DNA of 64,000 nt from sequence record OZ335963.1; one strand, given 5' to 3'. The translations under genes were made by a program, and so were the position numbers. This DNA is from a phage. The notes beneath the pieces are model-generated. The model searched no databases. It was not told the origin of the DNA and worked only from the letters and a program-made list of their open reading frames with translations. How positions within the stretch are numbered: position 1 is the stretch's first letter; every line of letters starts with the position of its first letter. Of the stretch, positions 1-15,210 are shown one piece after another.

Positions 1-195
1 AAATGAACTATTTTCTAATGCAACATTCAACGCATTAATAGATGGAACGCTATGGTACTCATTAACATGAGATTTAATTAATTTGAATGTATTTTTAGCT
101 GGACCACTTTCAAAATATTCTGAATCCATATATGGCCAAACTTTTGAAAAATAAGCTTGATCAAATATGAGATGAGAAAGAATAATTTCTACCAC
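1..195 (-). CDS. 41: DNA helicase gp41, N-terminal 65 codons only (gene continues past window start)
   Basis: GTG start at 193-195 preceded by AAGGAG; translation VVEIILSHLIFDQAYFSKVWPYMDSEYFESGPAKN matches remembered T4 gp41 N-terminus; lies downstream of uvsX/40 as in T4. Confidence 0.7.
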   Translation of the reverse strand, partial: MVEIILSHLIFDQAYFSKVWPYMDSEYFESGPAKNTFKLIKSHVNEYHSVPSINALNVALENSSF

Positions 196-204
196 ACTTA
201 CTCC

Positions 205-567
205 TTAAAAGAATTTAAATTTTTTCTTTGACCTTTTATTAAATGCATCTTGTAGTTGCATTGTAATACATTTTTCTACATGAGGAGCTAACTCAGCTTT
301 TCTTTCTTGGTCAAGAACAGCAAAGTCCATTACAACTTTTCCATCAACCCAATCTAATTTTGTCACATACACAATGTGTGTAGAACCATCTTCTAATTTA
401 ATGACAATCTCCTGGATAACATTTTCCATGGCAGATTTAATTATCTTAAGAGATTCATTAAAAAGACGTTCTTTTCTTTCTTCTTCCCCCTCCGAAGAGG
501 GGGATTCATCGATAATTTCTAGATCTAAATCTAAATCATCTTTATTCATTAAATTCTTCCATATCAC
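205..567 (-). CDS. 40: gp40-like small acidic protein (head vertex assembly chaperone position)
   Basis: 120-aa ORF between uvsX and 41 as in T4; alternative start at 549 (MNKDD) overlaps uvsX stop in ATGA-like coupling. Confidence 0.6.
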   Translation of the reverse strand: MIWKNLMNKDDLDLDLEIIDESPSSEGEEERKERLFNESLKIIKSAMENVIQEIVIKLEDGSTHIVYVTKLDWVDGKVVMDFAVLDQERKAELAPHVEKCITMQLQDAFNKRSKKKFKFF

Positions 568-1723
568 TTAACTGATCTAGGTCAGTTTCTAAATCAGCTG
601 CTGATTTACTTTTACTTTCTGGAGATTTAAATTTTTCAACCTTTGAGTTAATCAATTCATCAACTTCAGCTTCAACAATTTCATTACTATCAATAGCACC
701 TAACTGATAAGCGCGTTTAATAGCATCTCGGAATGGCTGATGCTTAAATAAAGGACCCCAGAATGTAGTGCAGTTGGTATCTTTTGCACGCCAAGATTTT
801 TCTTCGCGAATCATCTCGCCGGTTTCTTCATCAAGAAATTCACGAGCATACCAGCCATTTTTAGGTTTTACCACAAATCCTAATTCAAGAGCCATATCTA
901 ACAATCCAGAATAAGGATCGATACCACCGTCAAATTTAACATCAATAAAGAATTTACTTTTTTCTTTAACGGTACGAGATTTTTCTACATTTAGAACAAA
1001 CTGATACCCCTGAAGATCTGAACCATCTTTAATCTGGCGCTTACCGATAATGAATACGGTATCAGCCGAATACATTACGCCTGTACCACCTGTCATCACA
1101 GTTTTACTAAACATTTCAATTGTTTCAATTGTATGGTTAACCGCAACGCATGGAATGTTTTTAATACTAAAATAAGGAGTAACAATACGGAATAATGACT
1201 TCAGTGATTTAGCACGAGTCATATCTGCCACAGATTTTTCATTCAAGGCATCTTCCGTTTCTTTCTTAGAAGCCATATTACCGATTGAGTCGATGAATAC
1301 AATAACTTTTTCACCGCGCTCAATAGCTTCAAGCTGATTCACCATATCAATTTTCAGCTGTTCAACTGACTGGATTGGTGTATGAATTACTCGTTCCGGG
1401 TCAACTCCCATGGATCGCAAATAAGCTGGAGTAATACCAAATTCGCTATCATAGAATAGACATACCGCGTCAGGATATTTGTTCAAATACGCCGCAACCA
1501 TAGTCAAAGACATATTTGATTTAAAGTGTTTAGAAGGACCTGCAAAAATGGTTAAACCAGACTGCATACCACCATCAATCGCACCAGAAATAGCGATATT
1601 AAGCATTGGGATTTTTGTACGGATTACATCCTTTTCATTAAAGAATTTAGATGTAGTCAGTTCAGCAGTCATTTTAGAAGTGGAAGCTTTAATCAAACGG
1701 GATTTTAAATCTGCAATAGACAT
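542..1723 (-). CDS. uvsX: UvsX RecA-like recombinase
   Basis: 393-aa product, near full-length match to remembered T4 UvsX (MSIADLKSRLIKAS...); RecA-type ATPase core. Confidence 0.95.
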   Translation of the reverse strand: MSIADLKSRLIKASTSKMTAELTTSKFFNEKDVIRTKIPMLNIAISGAIDGGMQSGLTIFAGPSKHFKSNMSLTMVAAYLNKYPDAVCLFYDSEFGITPAYLRSMGVDPERVIHTPIQSVEQLKIDMVNQLEAIERGEKVIVFIDSIGNMASKKETEDALNEKSVADMTRAKSLKSLFRIVTPYFSIKNIPCVAVNHTIETIEMFSKTVMTGGTGVMYSADTVFIIGKRQIKDGSDLQGYQFVLNVEKSRTVKEKSKFFIDVKFDGGIDPYSGLLDMALELGFVVKPKNGWYAREFLDEETGEMIREEKSWRAKDTNCTTFWGPLFKHQPFRDAIKRAYQLGAIDSNEIVEAEVDELINSKVEKFKSPESKSKSAADLETDLDQLSDMEEFNE

Positions 1724-1802
1724 TCATTTTTTCCATAGGCATCATTATATTTTCCTCACTGGTTAAAGATAGAGTAATTATAACACAAAATAAATTTAGG
1801 CA

Positions 1803-2651
1803 TTAATCAACTGCTATTGGATGAATAGCATTAAACTTATGAAATGCTTCTGATTTTTCTTTGCGCGAAACACACATGCGAAGAACCTTTAATGGCTCGT
1901 CTTCTTCACCCAACGATTTTCTCTTTTCAATATTCGATGTTTTCCAACGAGCTTGCTCTGGAAACTCTCTATTGATTTGCTCAAGAGCTCTATTATGTTT
2001 TGAATTACTACGAATTGAACTGCACCCGCCCGGAGCCTGTGCTTTTCCAGATACAACCAGATATTTGAACAAGGCCAAATGCGGATAACCTTGATTAATT
2101 AAATTGAGAAATGCATACATATCTTCGCATAAATCAATTTTTCCATACCCAATTTGTTCTGTTGTAAGTTTCCCAAGGTCATACCATGTATTCGTGAATC
2201 CATATGAATTTTCACGATAATTACCCCAAGATGAAGTAATTTTAAAAATAGGTAAACGAGCATGACCGTGATAATACCCGCAATCCATGGCATCTTCAAC
2301 GTATTGAATCAATTCATAGAACTGTTCACGAGTTAATTGATTAATTTTATCTACGCAGCGACGATCATCTTTCTTTCGCATTGAACTCATACGAATAGTA
2401 GTATCATCATCAATCATCCAAATTCGTTGACCTGCATACATATCAGTAATTGCTTTACGAGTACCAGCAATTCCGTTAACATCATCAGGAATAGTTATAA
2501 TTTTAGCTCTAGACCCGTAAGCGTCATAATAAGCTTTTTCTTCGTGTTCACGTACTACAATATGAGGTTCATAATCAGTCGGAAACATATCAAGGGCAGA
2601 AACTGCCCCTACGCGTTGATAGCTTGGAATTACGAATTGAATCATTTCCAT
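1803..2651 (-). CDS. putative GT-A fold glycosyltransferase occupying the beta-gt locus
   Basis: 282-aa ORF fills the uvsX-42 interval; FVIPSY...PDDVNGIAGTR...IWMIDDDT layout with DxD motif; no resemblance to remembered T4 beta-gt (351 aa). Confidence 0.5.
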   Translation of the reverse strand: MEMIQFVIPSYQRVGAVSALDMFPTDYEPHIVVREHEEKAYYDAYGSRAKIITIPDDVNGIAGTRKAITDMYAGQRIWMIDDDTTIRMSSMRKKDDRRCVDKINQLTREQFYELIQYVEDAMDCGYYHGHARLPIFKITSSWGNYRENSYGFTNTWYDLGKLTTEQIGYGKIDLCEDMYAFLNLINQGYPHLALFKYLVVSGKAQAPGGCSSIRSNSKHNRALEQINREFPEQARWKTSNIEKRKSLGEEDEPLKVLRMCVSRKEKSEAFHKFNAIHPIAVD

Positions 2652-3382
2652 TCACCGTTATAATCTTTTTTCGCAATATGAGTTTCGCCAGTTTTCCACC
2701 AATGGTCAACCAAATAAAAATGACGGGAATACACATGAAGGCTCCCGACATTCCATATAATGGAACCTGCTTTATACTGACGAGTTGAATCACCTGCATT
2801 CAAATCAGATACTAATTTATCTAGTACGTATTTTTGCCATGCATAATCATTACGGAATCCGAAGACTACGTCATTTGAACGCATGCTTACTACTGCATTG
2901 ACTTTCTTATCACGAATCAGGTACTGTACTGTATTCGTACACATGAAATCTGACATACCATCTTTATTGTAGTCAAACTGCATGGATGGACGAGTATAAA
3001 TCATGATACCACGTCGAGAATCAGGATTTTGACCAAGTTCAGCTAAACACATATCATACTGGGCATAGTTATCTTCTGACCAGATAGCCCAACCATAATT
3101 CGAGTTAATTTCGCCTTTAGAAGATGCTACCTGTTGCCAAATCTTCGGTGTTTCACCCGGAATATCTTTAACAAACAGACTTTGAGACTTATACCATTCA
3201 AGTTCACGTTGAATGTATTCATCATTAAGAGCGCCAAAAATAAAAGGTTCATCTGCTACAAATGATGCACCAATAATTTCAATAGTTTTAACACCAGTTT
3301 TATCAATTACGAAATCTTTTTCCTTTAATGCAAGACCCAAATCAAGACGGATTTCTTCAACTGTCATATAATCGTTAATCAT
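2642..3382 (-). CDS. 42: dCMP hydroxymethylase
   Basis: 246 aa, near-identical to remembered T4 gp42. Confidence 0.95.
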   Translation of the reverse strand: MINDYMTVEEIRLDLGLALKEKDFVIDKTGVKTIEIIGASFVADEPFIFGALNDEYIQRELEWYKSQSLFVKDIPGETPKIWQQVASSKGEINSNYGWAIWSEDNYAQYDMCLAELGQNPDSRRGIMIYTRPSMQFDYNKDGMSDFMCTNTVQYLIRDKKVNAVVSMRSNDVVFGFRNDYAWQKYVLDKLVSDLNAGDSTRQYKAGSIIWNVGSLHVYSRHFYLVDHWWKTGETHIAKKDYNGEWK

Positions 3383-3535
3383 TTAAACCTCAATTGATGC
3401 ATTCATATTTAACTTGTAACAGTAATAAACCCCAACCTATAATAAGTGTCGGAATCATACAAGGAACCGTTACGCTATAGTATATACTTATTATAATCAT
3501 CAAAATTAAAAGCAATACTGCTAAAATTTTGCTTT

Positions 3536-3787
3536 TCATTCCTTCTCTCTGATGATAATTACTTGGTTTTGCTGTGCAGATTTTTTAGTTTCACCCGCAA
3601 TTGACCAAATAAATGTAATAAACCAACCAATAATTGACCAATTAAACAGTAAAGATGTGAAAAAGATTCCTACTGTCGATTTTGACCCACGCATCAAGGC
3701 GATGAACCACGGAAGCATGTATATAATAATAGCCAACACGCCTGAAACTAAAACCATAAAAATTGAACCTGCTACTAAAGTTTCCAT
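3536..3787 (-). CDS. imm: Imm superinfection immunity membrane protein
   Basis: 83 aa, two hydrophobic helices, T4 position between 42 and 43. Confidence 0.85.
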   Translation of the reverse strand: METLVAGSIFMVLVSGVLAIIIYMLPWFIALMRGSKSTVGIFFTSLLFNWSIIGWFITFIWSIAGETKKSAQQNQVIIIREKE

Positions 3788-3794
3788 GTTTTCC

Positions 3795-4175
3795 TCACTT
3801 AGTCAAATTTTTTACACATGAATTATAAGAATTCACTACATACTCCATTGGAGCATTTTTACCAGTACGCCATTGGTAATTATTAGCCCAATTAGCCCAA
3901 AGTTCGGCGCAGTAGTTTTCAATTTTTTCTTCGCGTGTAATTACATCTGAATTACGATATGCTTGAGCAGATTCATCTGGACGAATAGCTTCGTCAAAAT
4001 TCGCCTGCATTTGTTCTACTGTCTGTTTTGGAGCTTCTTTATAACACTTGACGTTAGGATTATAAAATTTGCTTGAACAGTTTACAATTTTTCCTACATC
4101 AGATTGATTTACTACTGGTCCTTGAGCTACACAACCAGTAAGACCTAATGCAATAACCAAAATAGCGATTTTCAT
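3795..4175 (-). CDS. predicted lipoprotein (imm.1 position)
   Basis: Start taken at internal Met MKIAILVIALGLTGC (signal peptide plus lipobox cysteine); the longer 189-aa ORF reads through the upstream early promoter. Confidence 0.5.
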   Translation of the reverse strand: MKIAILVIALGLTGCVAQGPVVNQSDVGKIVNCSSKFYNPNVKCYKEAPKQTVEQMQANFDEAIRPDESAQAYRNSDVITREEKIENYCAELWANWANNYQWRTGKNAPMEYVVNSYNSCVKNLTK

Positions 4176-4199
4176 TTCATTCTCCAAATTTGTATTGGT

Positions 4200-4262
4200 T
4201 GATAGTTGTATAGTACCACAGAGGAACAGTCTTGTAAACAGTTTTGTGAAAAAATTTTTAAT
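4200..4262 (-). promoter_or_regulatory. T4-type early promoter (UP element, GTTTAC -35, extended -10)
   Basis: Minus-strand reading AAAAATTTTTTCACAAAACTGTTTACAAGACTGTTCCTCTGTGGTACTATAC; about 60-bp module repeated at 31441 and 46308. Confidence 0.7.
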
Positions 4263-4322
4263 GAATTTAAAGGACCTAGAATCATCTATTTTTCCTAAGT
4301 ATAGATTTATATTACTTGTATG

Positions 4323-4343
4323 AAAAAGGGACCCGGAGGTCCC
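4323..4343 (-). terminator. rho-independent terminator after gene 43
   Basis: GGGACC-TCCG-GGTCCC stem-loop followed by U5 on the minus-strand transcript, directly after the gp43 stop. Confidence 0.7.
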
Positions 4344-4356
4344 TAGATTTATTCTA

Positions 4357-7053
4357 TCAGCCAAACAGGAAGTCTAACGAAGCTTTTTCCTCATAGTCCA
4401 TACCTGCTGATTCACACATGCCAGCAAGCGGTTTAACAAACGATTTTTGGAACAAAGTTGAGTAGTCAATCCAAGACAGTACATCAGAACGAATTTCTTT
4501 TGGAAGTTCTGTACCTGATGGCCAAGCAATGCACTTGTCACCAAATGGATTTCCTTCACGTAATGGAAGAACCATTACCTTATTTCCATCCAAAATTGGA
4601 GCTACACCTAAACCGTTAACAGCTCGACGATAAGTTAGCACACCACGAATATGGAATGGACATTTAAATCCTGGCCAGCCTTTATCATCATATTTCGCTA
4701 TATCGTTCGCAGTTTTTACTTCAGCAATAACTTTATAATCAAGTTGACGATATTCTTTCTCAAAGTTCTTGTAATATTCTTGGACGGACTCTTCGCCTTC
4801 CTGAAGAATACGACGAATACTTTCTTCGAGAGCTTCTTGTACTGCTTTTGGTGTTGAACTCTGCTGAGTTTCCATACCCATGATTTTTAGATGCGGTTCA
4901 GCAAATCGCTTATCTTCCATATCATAAACGTTCAGAGCATAACGTTTTTTCGCTTTCCAAAATCCACCAACACCCTTTGAACCAAGTGGAGGGCAAGAAA
5001 TAGCTTCACGGTCCATATGCATCAGATGCTCGCGGTTATTCATATAATCACATAACTCACGATATGCAACATCAATCATAGGTTCCATCTTTTTCTTACC
5101 AAACTGATTCATGAATTCAACTAAATCATTTTGTTCTTTAAAGCGGTCAAGACCTACTTTTTCAATAACTTTATCTACACAAACGTATACCGAATCAGTA
5201 TCACCTGCTGCGATGAAATCTTCACCATTAGTTCCACACACTTTGTTTAGATACTCATTAATTTTACGAGCAATCCACTGAATACCGACTTGACCGAAAA
5301 TTGTGATAGCAGTAGCATTTCGCAAATCATAGTAGCGGAAATGAATATTACCAAGAGCACCATAAAGACTGTTAATAAGAATTTTACGGTTCAGCTGATT
5401 TGTGTTAGCGAGTGTAGCTGCTTTTTCGCATTCTTCGATCAGACTATTAAGAACAGATTCGGTGTAATTCGATAATTCGTTTAAGAAATCATCACTGAAC
5501 TTAACATATCGTTCAACTTCTGGTTTAGTTGAGCAAGACCCTGCGCCTTTCATAATAATCTTTTTAATAGCTTCGGCATTCATTTCTTCCGCGAACATTT
5601 TCTTTTTCCAATCTTTACGCTGGAAAAATACTTTAGCGATTTCCTTTGGAATGATACCTTCTTGGTGCTTATCATACATCCATCCATTCGGAGAACAAGA
5701 ATATTCATCACTTGGCTTAGGAGCTGTTCCTGCGATATATTCATGAATTGGATGAACTTTAAACTGCCCGCGAATAGTCTCAGGACTAATGTTAACCTGA
5801 CGAATAATGCTAGGATACAGAGACGTCAAGTCAAAACTCATAATGTATCGACGAGCAATCGGTTTAGGTTCAAACACAAATGCACCTGGAAAACTCTGTT
5901 TAACGTGCGAACCTTGTTGAGGAATAACCTTATGTTCACCTTTCAGTGAGTTAAAAATAATAGCATCCCAAGTTTTAATAGGACTCATTACACCAGAAAA
6001 AGGCATTTTAGCGTAATAAGACATACTTAAAACTAGATCGATAAACCCACGAATTTTATCAATTGCTTGAACTGATTCTACGTCAATGATGTTATAACTA
6101 ATGTATCGTTGATGATTAGTCTCACGAAGTTTATTAATAGGACCATCGTACGGCAATTTACCTTTTTTGGTTTCATGTTGAGCAACTGATTCCAAAGAGA
6201 ACGATGGCAAATTAGTAAATGCGAATTTCTTGTATAAATCTAAATAATCAAGAATAGATACGCCATCAATAGAATAAATTTCTTTGCTACCGTACATATT
6301 TTGAATTAGTTTAGATTTTACTCGACCGATTGGAGAGAAGCGTTTCATACTACGTTCACCGAGAACCATTTTAACGCGATTCATGATATACGGAACGTCA
6401 AATCCCTCAATATTCCAACCGGTAAAAATAGCAGGTCGTTTCTGTTCCCAGAGATTAATATATTCCATGAGCATATCACGCTCATTATCAAATGGCATAT
6501 AAATTACTCGGTCAAGAATTTCTTGAGGAACTTCATCACCACCTTCACAGTCAAGCTTAGCAGCTAACTTTGCATCCCATTTTGATACTGAACCGTACAT
6601 TGAATTCAATAAATCAAAGACGTAAAAACGATCGTCAATTGAATCATAATGAGTGATAGCATCAATTTCATATTCTGCTTTCATTGGGTCAGGAAATTTA
6701 TCGCCAGTAACCTCAATGTCACAGTTAGCTACACGAACAAATTTTCGGTCATAAACAATTTCTGAACCATATGTATCACTGATATAAGCGAGTTTAAAAT
6801 CGTTCATACCGAGAGCTTCGAGACCGATGTCTTCCATTCGCTTCATCCAGTCTCGCGCATCTTTCATTGATGGAAATTTTTGAGGAGCGCAATTTTTACC
6901 ATAAATGTCTTTGTATTTTGACTCTTCCTTACAATGCCTAAACATAGTCGGAAGATATTCTACTTCGCGAGTACGTTCCTTTCCGTTTTCATCAATATAA
7001 CGCTCAACAATATTATTTCCGACTGTTTCGATAGAGATATAAAATTCTTTCAT
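4357..7053 (-). CDS. 43: DNA polymerase gp43 (family B)
   Basis: 898 aa, matches remembered T4 gp43 end to end (exonuclease and polymerase motifs). Confidence 0.97.
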   Translation of the reverse strand: MKEFYISIETVGNNIVERYIDENGKERTREVEYLPTMFRHCKEESKYKDIYGKNCAPQKFPSMKDARDWMKRMEDIGLEALGMNDFKLAYISDTYGSEIVYDRKFVRVANCDIEVTGDKFPDPMKAEYEIDAITHYDSIDDRFYVFDLLNSMYGSVSKWDAKLAAKLDCEGGDEVPQEILDRVIYMPFDNERDMLMEYINLWEQKRPAIFTGWNIEGFDVPYIMNRVKMVLGERSMKRFSPIGRVKSKLIQNMYGSKEIYSIDGVSILDYLDLYKKFAFTNLPSFSLESVAQHETKKGKLPYDGPINKLRETNHQRYISYNIIDVESVQAIDKIRGFIDLVLSMSYYAKMPFSGVMSPIKTWDAIIFNSLKGEHKVIPQQGSHVKQSFPGAFVFEPKPIARRYIMSFDLTSLYPSIIRQVNISPETIRGQFKVHPIHEYIAGTAPKPSDEYSCSPNGWMYDKHQEGIIPKEIAKVFFQRKDWKKKMFAEEMNAEAIKKIIMKGAGSCSTKPEVERYVKFSDDFLNELSNYTESVLNSLIEECEKAATLANTNQLNRKILINSLYGALGNIHFRYYDLRNATAITIFGQVGIQWIARKINEYLNKVCGTNGEDFIAAGDTDSVYVCVDKVIEKVGLDRFKEQNDLVEFMNQFGKKKMEPMIDVAYRELCDYMNNREHLMHMDREAISCPPLGSKGVGGFWKAKKRYALNVYDMEDKRFAEPHLKIMGMETQQSSTPKAVQEALEESIRRILQEGEESVQEYYKNFEKEYRQLDYKVIAEVKTANDIAKYDDKGWPGFKCPFHIRGVLTYRRAVNGLGVAPILDGNKVMVLPLREGNPFGDKCIAWPSGTELPKEIRSDVLSWIDYSTLFQKSFVKPLAGMCESAGMDYEEKASLDFLFG

Positions 7054-13991: not shown

Positions 13992-14009
13992 AAAGGGCCG
14001 AAGCCCTTT
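13992..14009 (-). other. C(UUCG)G hairpin overlapping the alpha-gt stop codon
   Basis: aaagggccgaagcccttt. Confidence 0.65.
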
Positions 14010-15210
14010 ATTTTGTAATAATGTCAAACTGTTCTTTAAAGCAGAAGCTTGAATCTTGATGCTGATACAAAAATTCATAAGCTTTTTCGCGTTCACGGTC
14101 ATAAAGATTTCGGTCAGATGACAGTTCTTTAATACGCTCAAATGTTGATTCCATGTCATTTTCATCAAACCAAACGATACCGCTATCATGAGAAATTAAC
14201 GGAGTATTATCAACACGGAATTTTAAATTTTCGCCAGTAGATTTCCAAAATACCGGAATTGTTCCACACGCACCAAGCTCGAGATGAGTATATTCTAAAG
14301 AACGTTGTAGATATTTTTTGTCCAACTTACTCAACTGATAACCAAATCCGGATTTACTCATGCGTTCAAGCATCTCGCTATTTACATAACGGTCAAGAAT
14401 TTGCGTTGGCAAATTAGGAGCAATTTTAATTTGGTCTACTTGATGAAGACGATAATATTCGTATGGAATTCCTTTTTCTTTAATAGGAATGAACGCTGGA
14501 GAACGTTCCAGACCTTCCATAATAGTACTTAGCCCAGCAGGTTTAAGATGTTTTTCGTGAAAATCAAACATCTGATAAAAACCTTTCCATGTAGTCGTAC
14601 GACCAATCCAACGGTTGACATTCATGTTAATTTCAGAAACATCTTTCCAGTAGGTTGATCGAACCTTCGCAATATCCATAGGAGGCTGAAAGTTGTATAC
14701 AGTCGGTGCTTCTTCAATATCGTCAAACAGTGAAACAGTTTCTGGATACCATTCTTTCATCAGAACTTTATTAAAATCACCATTATCAGAATGACTAAAA
14801 ATAACATCAGCTCGGCGAACAGTTTCTTCTAATCCCAAATTTCGGCGCAAAGAAAGAGAAGAATGGTCATGTTGATAAACTACAACACGAACCGAAGGTT
14901 TAATGTTATCAATAATTTTTTTATAGTTATTAATAGTGTCTTCTTCGACTGAAGTAGCAGGAACTGAATTGATAATTAGAATATCACAATCATTTACCAG
15001 CTTAAGTGTTTTATCGTATTCTTTTGCCAATAAAACCGGAATTGAAAATGATTTATAATCATGCGCGCAATTACGGGTAAATGATTTATCTTTAGCATAA
15101 ACCAAAGTTACTTCATGACCATTTTTAATAAACCAATCACGTTGCTCAAGAGAAAATTTAGTTACGCCACAACCTTCAAGACCTCGAGCCATAAAAATGC
15201 ATACTTTCAT
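14008..15210 (-). CDS. a-gt: DNA alpha-glucosyltransferase
   Basis: 400 aa, strong match to remembered T4 alpha-gt with scattered substitutions. Confidence 0.93.
   Translation of the reverse strand: MKVCIFMARGLEGCGVTKFSLEQRDWFIKNGHEVTLVYAKDKSFTRNCAHDYKSFSIPVLLAKEYDKTLKLVNDCDILIINSVPATSVEEDTINNYKKIIDNIKPSVRVVVYQHDHSSLSLRRNLGLEETVRRADVIFSHSDNGDFNKVLMKEWYPETVSLFDDIEEAPTVYNFQPPMDIAKVRSTYWKDVSEINMNVNRWIGRTTTWKGFYQMFDFHEKHLKPAGLSTIMEGLERSPAFIPIKEKGIPYEYYRLHQVDQIKIAPNLPTQILDRYVNSEMLERMSKSGFGYQLSKLDKKYLQRSLEYTHLELGACGTIPVFWKSTGENLKFRVDNTPLISHDSGIVWFDENDMESTFERIKELSSDRNLYDREREKAYEFLYQHQDSSFCFKEQFDIITK

Follow-up and report, generated by a model that had tools for sequence, protein, structure and literature searches.

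A gene between uvsX and gene 42 that very probably encodes a T2/T6-type beta-glucosyl-HMC-alpha-glucosyltransferase

Glucosylation of hydroxymethylcytosine in T2, T6 and T4

The beta-glucosyl-HMC-alpha-glucosyltransferase of phages T2 and T6 (ba-gt, also ggt or TAGT) is a long-known enzyme, and these genes were reportedly first cloned by Winkler and Rueger in 1993. Both phages lack the beta-glucosyltransferase (beta-gt or b-gt) and carry an alpha-glucosyltransferase (alpha-gt or a-gt) that glucosylates ~75% of the hydroxymethylcytosine (hmC), and gentiobiosyl-hmC, in which a second glucose is joined by a beta-1,6 bond to alpha-glucosyl-hmC, makes up 5% of the hmC in T2 and 72% in T6 (PMC6024577; PMC13216743; bioRxiv 10.64898/2026.02.25.707755). 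When g-gt is deleted from T6, ~75% alpha-glucosyl-hmC replaces the gentiobiosyl-hmC (bioRxiv preprint 10.64898/2026.02.25.707755). LC-MS of ten natural Tequatrovirus phages that carry alpha-gt and TAGT found beta-glucosyl-hmC in none of them; the ratio of hmC, alpha-glucosyl-hmC and gentiobiosyl-hmC was ~1:2:2 in EL, BGP and Geo, and Solly, TB37, QOTSP, NR1, CP, Some and EH2 contained ~1/3 hmC and 2/3 gentiobiosyl-hmC (PMC13390438).

In T4, the interval between uvsX and gene 42 holds a 351-aa b-gt, as the initial annotation of the locus studied here had stated, and also the GIY-YIG homing endonuclease segA, which that annotation did not mention. An alpha- and a beta-glucosyltransferase occur together only in T4 and its close relatives, which account for 6 of the 753 phage genomes (PMC13216743).

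Position, family and start codon of the gene at 1803..2651

We analysed a stretch of 64,000 nucleotides of phage DNA from record OZ335963.1, hereafter the window. As the initial annotation had described, a single 282-aa ORF with an ATG start fills the interval between uvsX and gene 42, at 1803..2651 on the minus strand. Downstream lies the gene for the uvsX recombinase (542..1723; Pfam T4_UVSX_C, 4.7e-39), and upstream lies gene 42 for dCMP hydroxymethylase (2642..3382; Pfam Thymidylat_synt, 1.1e-15), whose product gp42 is annotated at the syntenic place in T6, T2 and T4; all three genes are on the minus strand. The gene order 43 / imm.1 / imm / 42 / ba-gt / uvsX / 40 / 41 is shared with T2 and T6. 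Like the window and these two phages, six Durham phages (BGP, EL, Geo, Solly, QOTSP and TB37) have ba-gt between uvsX and gene 42, in the place of beta-gt. Only 79 nt (1724-1802) separate ba-gt from uvsX, and segA is absent here as well as in T2 and T6. Hundreds of Tequatrovirus genomes match positions 1..4400 with 97-99% nucleotide identity, led by Shigella phage sb3 at 99.4%, and many close Tequatrovirus genomes already name the gene beta-glucosyl-HMC-alpha-glucosyltransferase.

A profile search matched the protein to PHROG 842 ('beta-glucosyl-HMC-alpha-glucosyltransferase') with E=1.9e-89 over residues 2-277. The protein also matched Pfam PF20691 TAGT (TET-associated glycosyltransferase) over residues 5-209 and profile positions 2-205 of 205, with 38.8 bits against a gathering cut-off of 27.5 bits, and most of its homologues (P0001-P0011) carry the same domain. 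Over the full length, it is 98.2% identical to the T2 protein (AP018813) and 97.5% identical to that of T6 (MH550421, ggt). It is reached from T2 by the substitutions H11R, R92K, V101I and S251P (4 in 280 residues) and from T6 by N40Y, G55D, R92K, V101I and H106R, and it is 98-99% identical, as a 280-aa product, to the enzymes of the six Durham phages. With the T2/T6 ba-gt it shares the length, the position between uvsX and gene 42, an ATGA overlap with gene 42, the alpha-gt partner, the DDD motif and the predicted GT-A fold. The alpha-gt gene, at 14008..15210 on the minus strand, is indeed intact, with a 400-aa ORF that matches Pfam AGT PF11440 with 781 bits (E=1.6e-235) and is 98.8% identical to the T2 a-gt. 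Hence the supplier of the acceptor and the dCMP hydroxymethylase both co-occur with ba-gt in the window, and all three genes are present and intact.

From the identity of the gene, its family, its predicted fold and its partner genes, all established here, and from the chemistry given in the literature, we conclude with high confidence that the ORF at 1803..2651 encodes a T2/T6-type beta-glucosyl-HMC-alpha-glucosyltransferase, an inverting enzyme of the GT-A (GT2-like) class that would yield alpha-gentiobiosyl-hmC together with gp42 and alpha-gt. This is the textbook T2/T6 configuration, found in most of the genus and in the majority of T4-like coliphages, and it is already covered by annotation and the recent literature: two 2026 papers (PMC13390438, PMC13216743) describe its synteny and GT-A fold and report LC-MS on near-identical phages.

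The window enzyme and T4 beta-gt (PF09198, one of the GT63/GT72-type phage enzymes in CAZy) occupy the same interval next to gene 42, and each of them uses UDP-glucose to modify hmC DNA and creates a beta linkage. They differ in size (280 aa for the window product and 351 aa for T4 beta-gt), in fold, which is GT-B for T4 beta-gt (PMC13216743) and predicted to be GT-A for the window enzyme, and in acceptor, which is naked hmC for the former and, by analogy with T2 and T6, would be alpha-glucosyl-hmC for the latter. The initial annotation saw no resemblance between the two, and BLASTP of the window ORF against T4 b-gt detected no similarity (best E=3.4); likewise, tblastn of T4 b-gt against every frame of the 64-kb window gave no match at E<=10.

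The same annotation viewed the locus as a beta-gt slot that holds a different gene. The gene does differ from that of T4, but ba-gt is the usual occupant of the slot and T4 beta-gt the rare one, according to the record counts and a published survey (PMC13216743). A tblastn search of 50,697 phage records found ba-gt in 690, and in 472 of these the identity was >=95%, compared with only 29 records that hold a T4-type beta-gt at >=90% identity. The homologues are full-length (>=80% of the query) in 686 records; 14 of the 690 fall below 60% identity, and the weakest among those listed has 24% identity over 81% of the query.

During these searches, several unusual arrangements and labels were observed. 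TAGT pairs with beta-gt too, in Enterobacter (Karamvirus-like) phages; in myPSH1140 (NC_055739), for example, a beta-gt homologue (~49% identical to that of T4) adjoins a TAGT homologue. Escherichia phage vB-Eco-KMB26 (OR539218) has a beta-gt homologue with 55% identity; another feature covered by this match is labelled glucosyl transferase, and a different part of the record encodes an alpha-gt that is 99% identical to that of the window. In the T4-like record of RB55 (KM607002), a true b-gt is mislabelled 'beta-glucosyl-HMC-alpha-glucosyl-transferase'.

The product of the gene is most likely 280 aa rather than 282 aa long and translationally coupled to gene 42, as judged from the start region, with coding positions 1806..2645 and the stop codon at 1803..1805. 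In T2 and T6, the first ATG of the maximal ORF (2651) reads GTG. The second ATG (2645) is conserved, and together with the stop codon of gene 42, which it overlaps, it forms ATGA. In addition, a GGTGA Shine-Dalgarno-like element is placed 6 nt upstream of the second ATG, while the first ATG abuts this element, and the two T2 records, like those of the Durham phages, annotate a 280-aa protein that starts at the second ATG. The shorter product is preferred because of this conservation, overlap, spacing and annotation.

A scan for promoters and terminators around ba-gt gave counts no higher than in shuffled sequence. One terminator-like hairpin with 9 pairs, TAGGGGCAGTTTCTGCCCTTG, lies at 2591-2611 on the minus strand within the 5' coding part of ba-gt (codons 14-20); it is probably due to chance, since such sites are no commoner than in shuffled sequence. 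Upstream of imm, the mechanically called 189-aa ORF of imm.1, which starts with TTG (3795-4364, minus strand), is too long. In relatives, imm.1 has 126 aa (381 nt) and starts with MKIAILVIALGLTGC, which resembles the signal of a lipoprotein, including a lipobox Cys. The RefSeq label 'iduronate sulfatase' on the T4 imm.1 orthologue looks like an annotation error.

Predicted fold and candidate catalytic residues

Searching the PDB with the window protein sequence gave only noise (E>0.7), so a model was needed to assign the fold. We built an AlphaFold2 model from an alignment with ten homologues, down to 29% identity. The model has moderate confidence overall (mean pLDDT 70.7, pTM 0.75), with three poorly defined loops, while the N-terminal Rossmann part (residues 1-80) has block means of 76-93. 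A Foldseek search against the PDB gave 45 matches at E<=1e-3, of which the first 29 were all GT-A, GT2-type glycosyltransferases, and the same-fold nucleotidyltransferases KdsB and RmlA appeared from rank 30 on. The top matches were AvpGT (9jn3), WrtF (9omn), RmlT (8bz6), the chondroitin polymerase K4CP (2z87), TarS (5tzi) and SpsA (1h7q); the GT2-type matches had E values of 1e-5 to 3e-4 and TM-scores of only moderate size (~0.45-0.5). The protein is therefore predicted to be a single Rossmann-like alpha/beta/alpha GT-A domain of the GT2-like type, in agreement with the GT-A-like layout proposed in the initial annotation. An AF3 model of the T6 TAGT was assigned independently to GT-A, with GT2 as its sister group (PMC13216743).

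The motifs on which that proposal was based were found at the expected places in the 282-aa ORF: FVIPSY at residues 6-11, PDDVNGIAGTR at 55-65, and IWMIDDDT, which includes the DxD motif, at 77-84. The DDD codons lie at 2403..2411 on the minus strand and encode residues 81-83 of the 282-aa ORF, or D79, D80 and D81 of the 280-aa product. These three residues are invariant in the homologue alignment and are placed at the end of a predicted strand (E74-79). By analogy with GT-A enzymes such as SpsA, they may bind Mn2+ and UDP. In GT2 enzymes such as SpsA, the catalytic base is located ~95 residues after the DxD motif. About 95 residues after DDD, the window protein has a nearly invariant E174 and an invariant D175, and we infer from the same analogy that E174/D175 is the candidate catalytic base. 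GT2 enzymes also invert the anomeric configuration, which agrees with the formation of a beta-1,6 bond from UDP-alpha-glucose.

The bacterial GT2 enzymes (SpsA, TarS, TarP, RmlT, K4CP, WrtF and AvpGT) represent the closest solved folds to the window enzyme. They share with it an N-terminal 'xxIPxY' strand, a DxD motif where beta4 ends and, ~95 residues further on, an acidic ED pair. However, the identity is only 10-15%, and their acceptor is polysaccharide or teichoic acid instead of a sugar on duplex DNA.

Alleles, rival readings and the expected DNA sugar pattern

To place the window allele among those with published DNA compositions, we aligned it with T2, T6 and the six Durham phages. The two Durham LC-MS groups correspond to two TAGT alleles that differ at I50V, M89I, R95K, C97R, V101I, A202S and Q203H (L005:11199-12038, L007:9122-9961 and L008:8872-9711 versus L006:108-947, L010:7716-8555 and L012:4302-5141). 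The BGP/EL/Geo allele, associated with the 1:2:2 ratio, has I50V, M89I, R95K, C97R, A202S and Q203H plus I101, and the Solly/QOTSP/TB37 allele, associated with ~2/3 gentiobiosyl-hmC, has the consensus residues. The window matches the latter at 6 of the 7 diagnostic positions (50, 89, 95, 97, 202 and 203) and has I101 in common with the former. Its K92 (R92K) is a private, conservative change in a low-confidence loop of the AF2 model.

The T2 ba-gt (AP018813, L003:2507-3346; LC348380, L013:795-1637) differs from the Solly/TB37 allele in only two positions, R11H and P251S. All ten aligned family members, down to 29% identity, have the invariant R11, which follows the 'IPSY' strand; this strand may contact the nucleotide as in GT2 enzymes. 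In the whole phage collection, the H11 codon context was confined to seven T2 records and SV76, whose genome is exactly as long as that of T2 and which is presumably a copy of it. The window keeps both R11 (codon ~2613-2615) and P251.

Since the window has R11, which is lost in T2, and six of the seven high-conversion residues, we infer that a high, T6- or Solly-like conversion is on balance the likelier outcome in this phage. This expectation comes from a correlation over eight phages, and the T2 (5%) and T6 (72%) enzymes are nearly identical, so that the extent of conversion is not readable from the sequence. It is conceivable, though we would hold it only tentatively, that small differences between ba-gt alleles, instead of the presence or absence of the gene, set the ratio of mono- to diglucosylation. 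The T2-private R11H and P251S would then be hypomorphic and lead to 5%, the BGP/EL/Geo allele would lead to 1:2:2, and the window allele, with R11, P251 and the Solly-type residues, would give a T6-like, near-complete conversion of alpha-glucosyl-hmC to gentiobiosyl-hmC. The T2, T6 and Durham ratios could equally well stem from differences in alpha-gt, in expression level or in other genes.

The same gene might instead be a weak, T2-like allele, so that the DNA would be mostly alpha-monoglucosylated with a few percent gentiobiosyl-hmC. In favour of such an allele, the T2 protein has just 4 differences in 280 residues from the window and yet is found with ~5% gentiobiosyl-hmC (PMC6024577), and at the T6-specific positions 40, 55 and 106 the window agrees with T2. 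But Solly, QOTSP and TB37 are also T2-like at these three positions and nevertheless have ~2/3 gentiobiosyl-hmC, and both T2-private substitutions, R11H and P251S, are absent from the window, H11 being confined to the T2 records and SV76. We therefore consider a weak allele unlikely. A TAGT-family enzyme with another sugar donor, or with an acceptor other than alpha-glucosyl-hmC, is conceivable in a family this diverse, whose members occur beside beta-gt, as in the Enterobacter phages, or without any alpha- or beta-gt (PMC13216743); it is very unlikely here, given the 97.5-99% identity to enzymes of phages with gentiobiosyl-hmC and the same alpha-gt partner. Finally, the PDB chains were undetectable by sequence alone, which would also suit an ORF that is there by chance or a protein of another fold that is not a glycosyltransferase. 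We give this practically no weight, as it is refuted by the 690 records, the Pfam and PHROG matches, the invariant DDD and the first 29 fold matches, none of which points to a non-glycosyltransferase fold. We also considered and rejected an arabinosyl-type modification like that of RB69/Mosigvirus, since gene 42, alpha-gt and TAGT each belong to the Tequatrovirus type.

With a T2/T6-type beta-glucosyl-HMC-alpha-glucosyltransferase as the preferred reading, gp42 would produce hm-dCMP and the polymerase would then incorporate hmC. Alpha-gt would add an alpha-linked glucose to ~3/4 of the hmC residues, and ba-gt would use host UDP-glucose to attach a second glucose, beta-1,6 to the first, giving alpha-gentiobiosyl-hmC as in T2 and T6. 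Because the 64-kb window contains no beta-gt, beta-glucosyl-hmC would not be made, and the virion DNA would contain naked hmC, alpha-glucosyl-hmC and gentiobiosyl-hmC side by side. A beta-gt in the part of the genome beyond the window is improbable, as so few phage genomes (6 of 753) combine it with alpha-gt. The initial annotation had predicted a sugar pattern different from that of T4, naming gentiobiosyl addition of the T2/T6 type as its first example and another sugar as the alternative. The gentiobiosyl part is upheld by the identity to the T2 and T6 enzymes, by the PHROG 842 and TAGT matches and by the predicted GT-A/GT2 fold, whereas the other sugar is without support. The prediction and the proposed LC-MS have in effect already been carried out on phages with a 98-99% identical enzyme.

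In addition to the T2-private R11H allele, the comparison revealed that both deposited T6 genomes have a lesion in ggt; these two observations are a mildly new by-product that concerns other phages only. In MH550421 (L001:2501-3349), the 282-aa frame contains TAG at codon 12, and the annotated protein has 261 aa from an internal Met and is without the first beta-strand. We rejected this internal Met22 start as an artefact of the amber codon of that record. In AP018814 / NC_054907 (L004:108-944), a 3-nt deletion removes one Asp of DDD (DxD). These lesions may be stock-specific mutations or sequencing errors, and the RefSeq T6 protein used as a family reference may be the DD version. Neither lesion of the sequenced T6 stocks, the amber codon or the deletion in DDD, occurs in the window gene.

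The assignment is of use for annotation, as several close records still label ba-gt 'hypothetical protein'. The identity of the gene also helps to predict the sensitivity of the phage to defence. DNA with gentiobiosyl-hmC remains a target of GmrSD, while BapA does not deglucosylate it; a proposed role of the second glucose is to aid evasion of glycosylases directed at alpha-glucosyl-hmC, such as Brig1 (PMC13216743; bioRxiv 10.64898/2026.02.25.707755).
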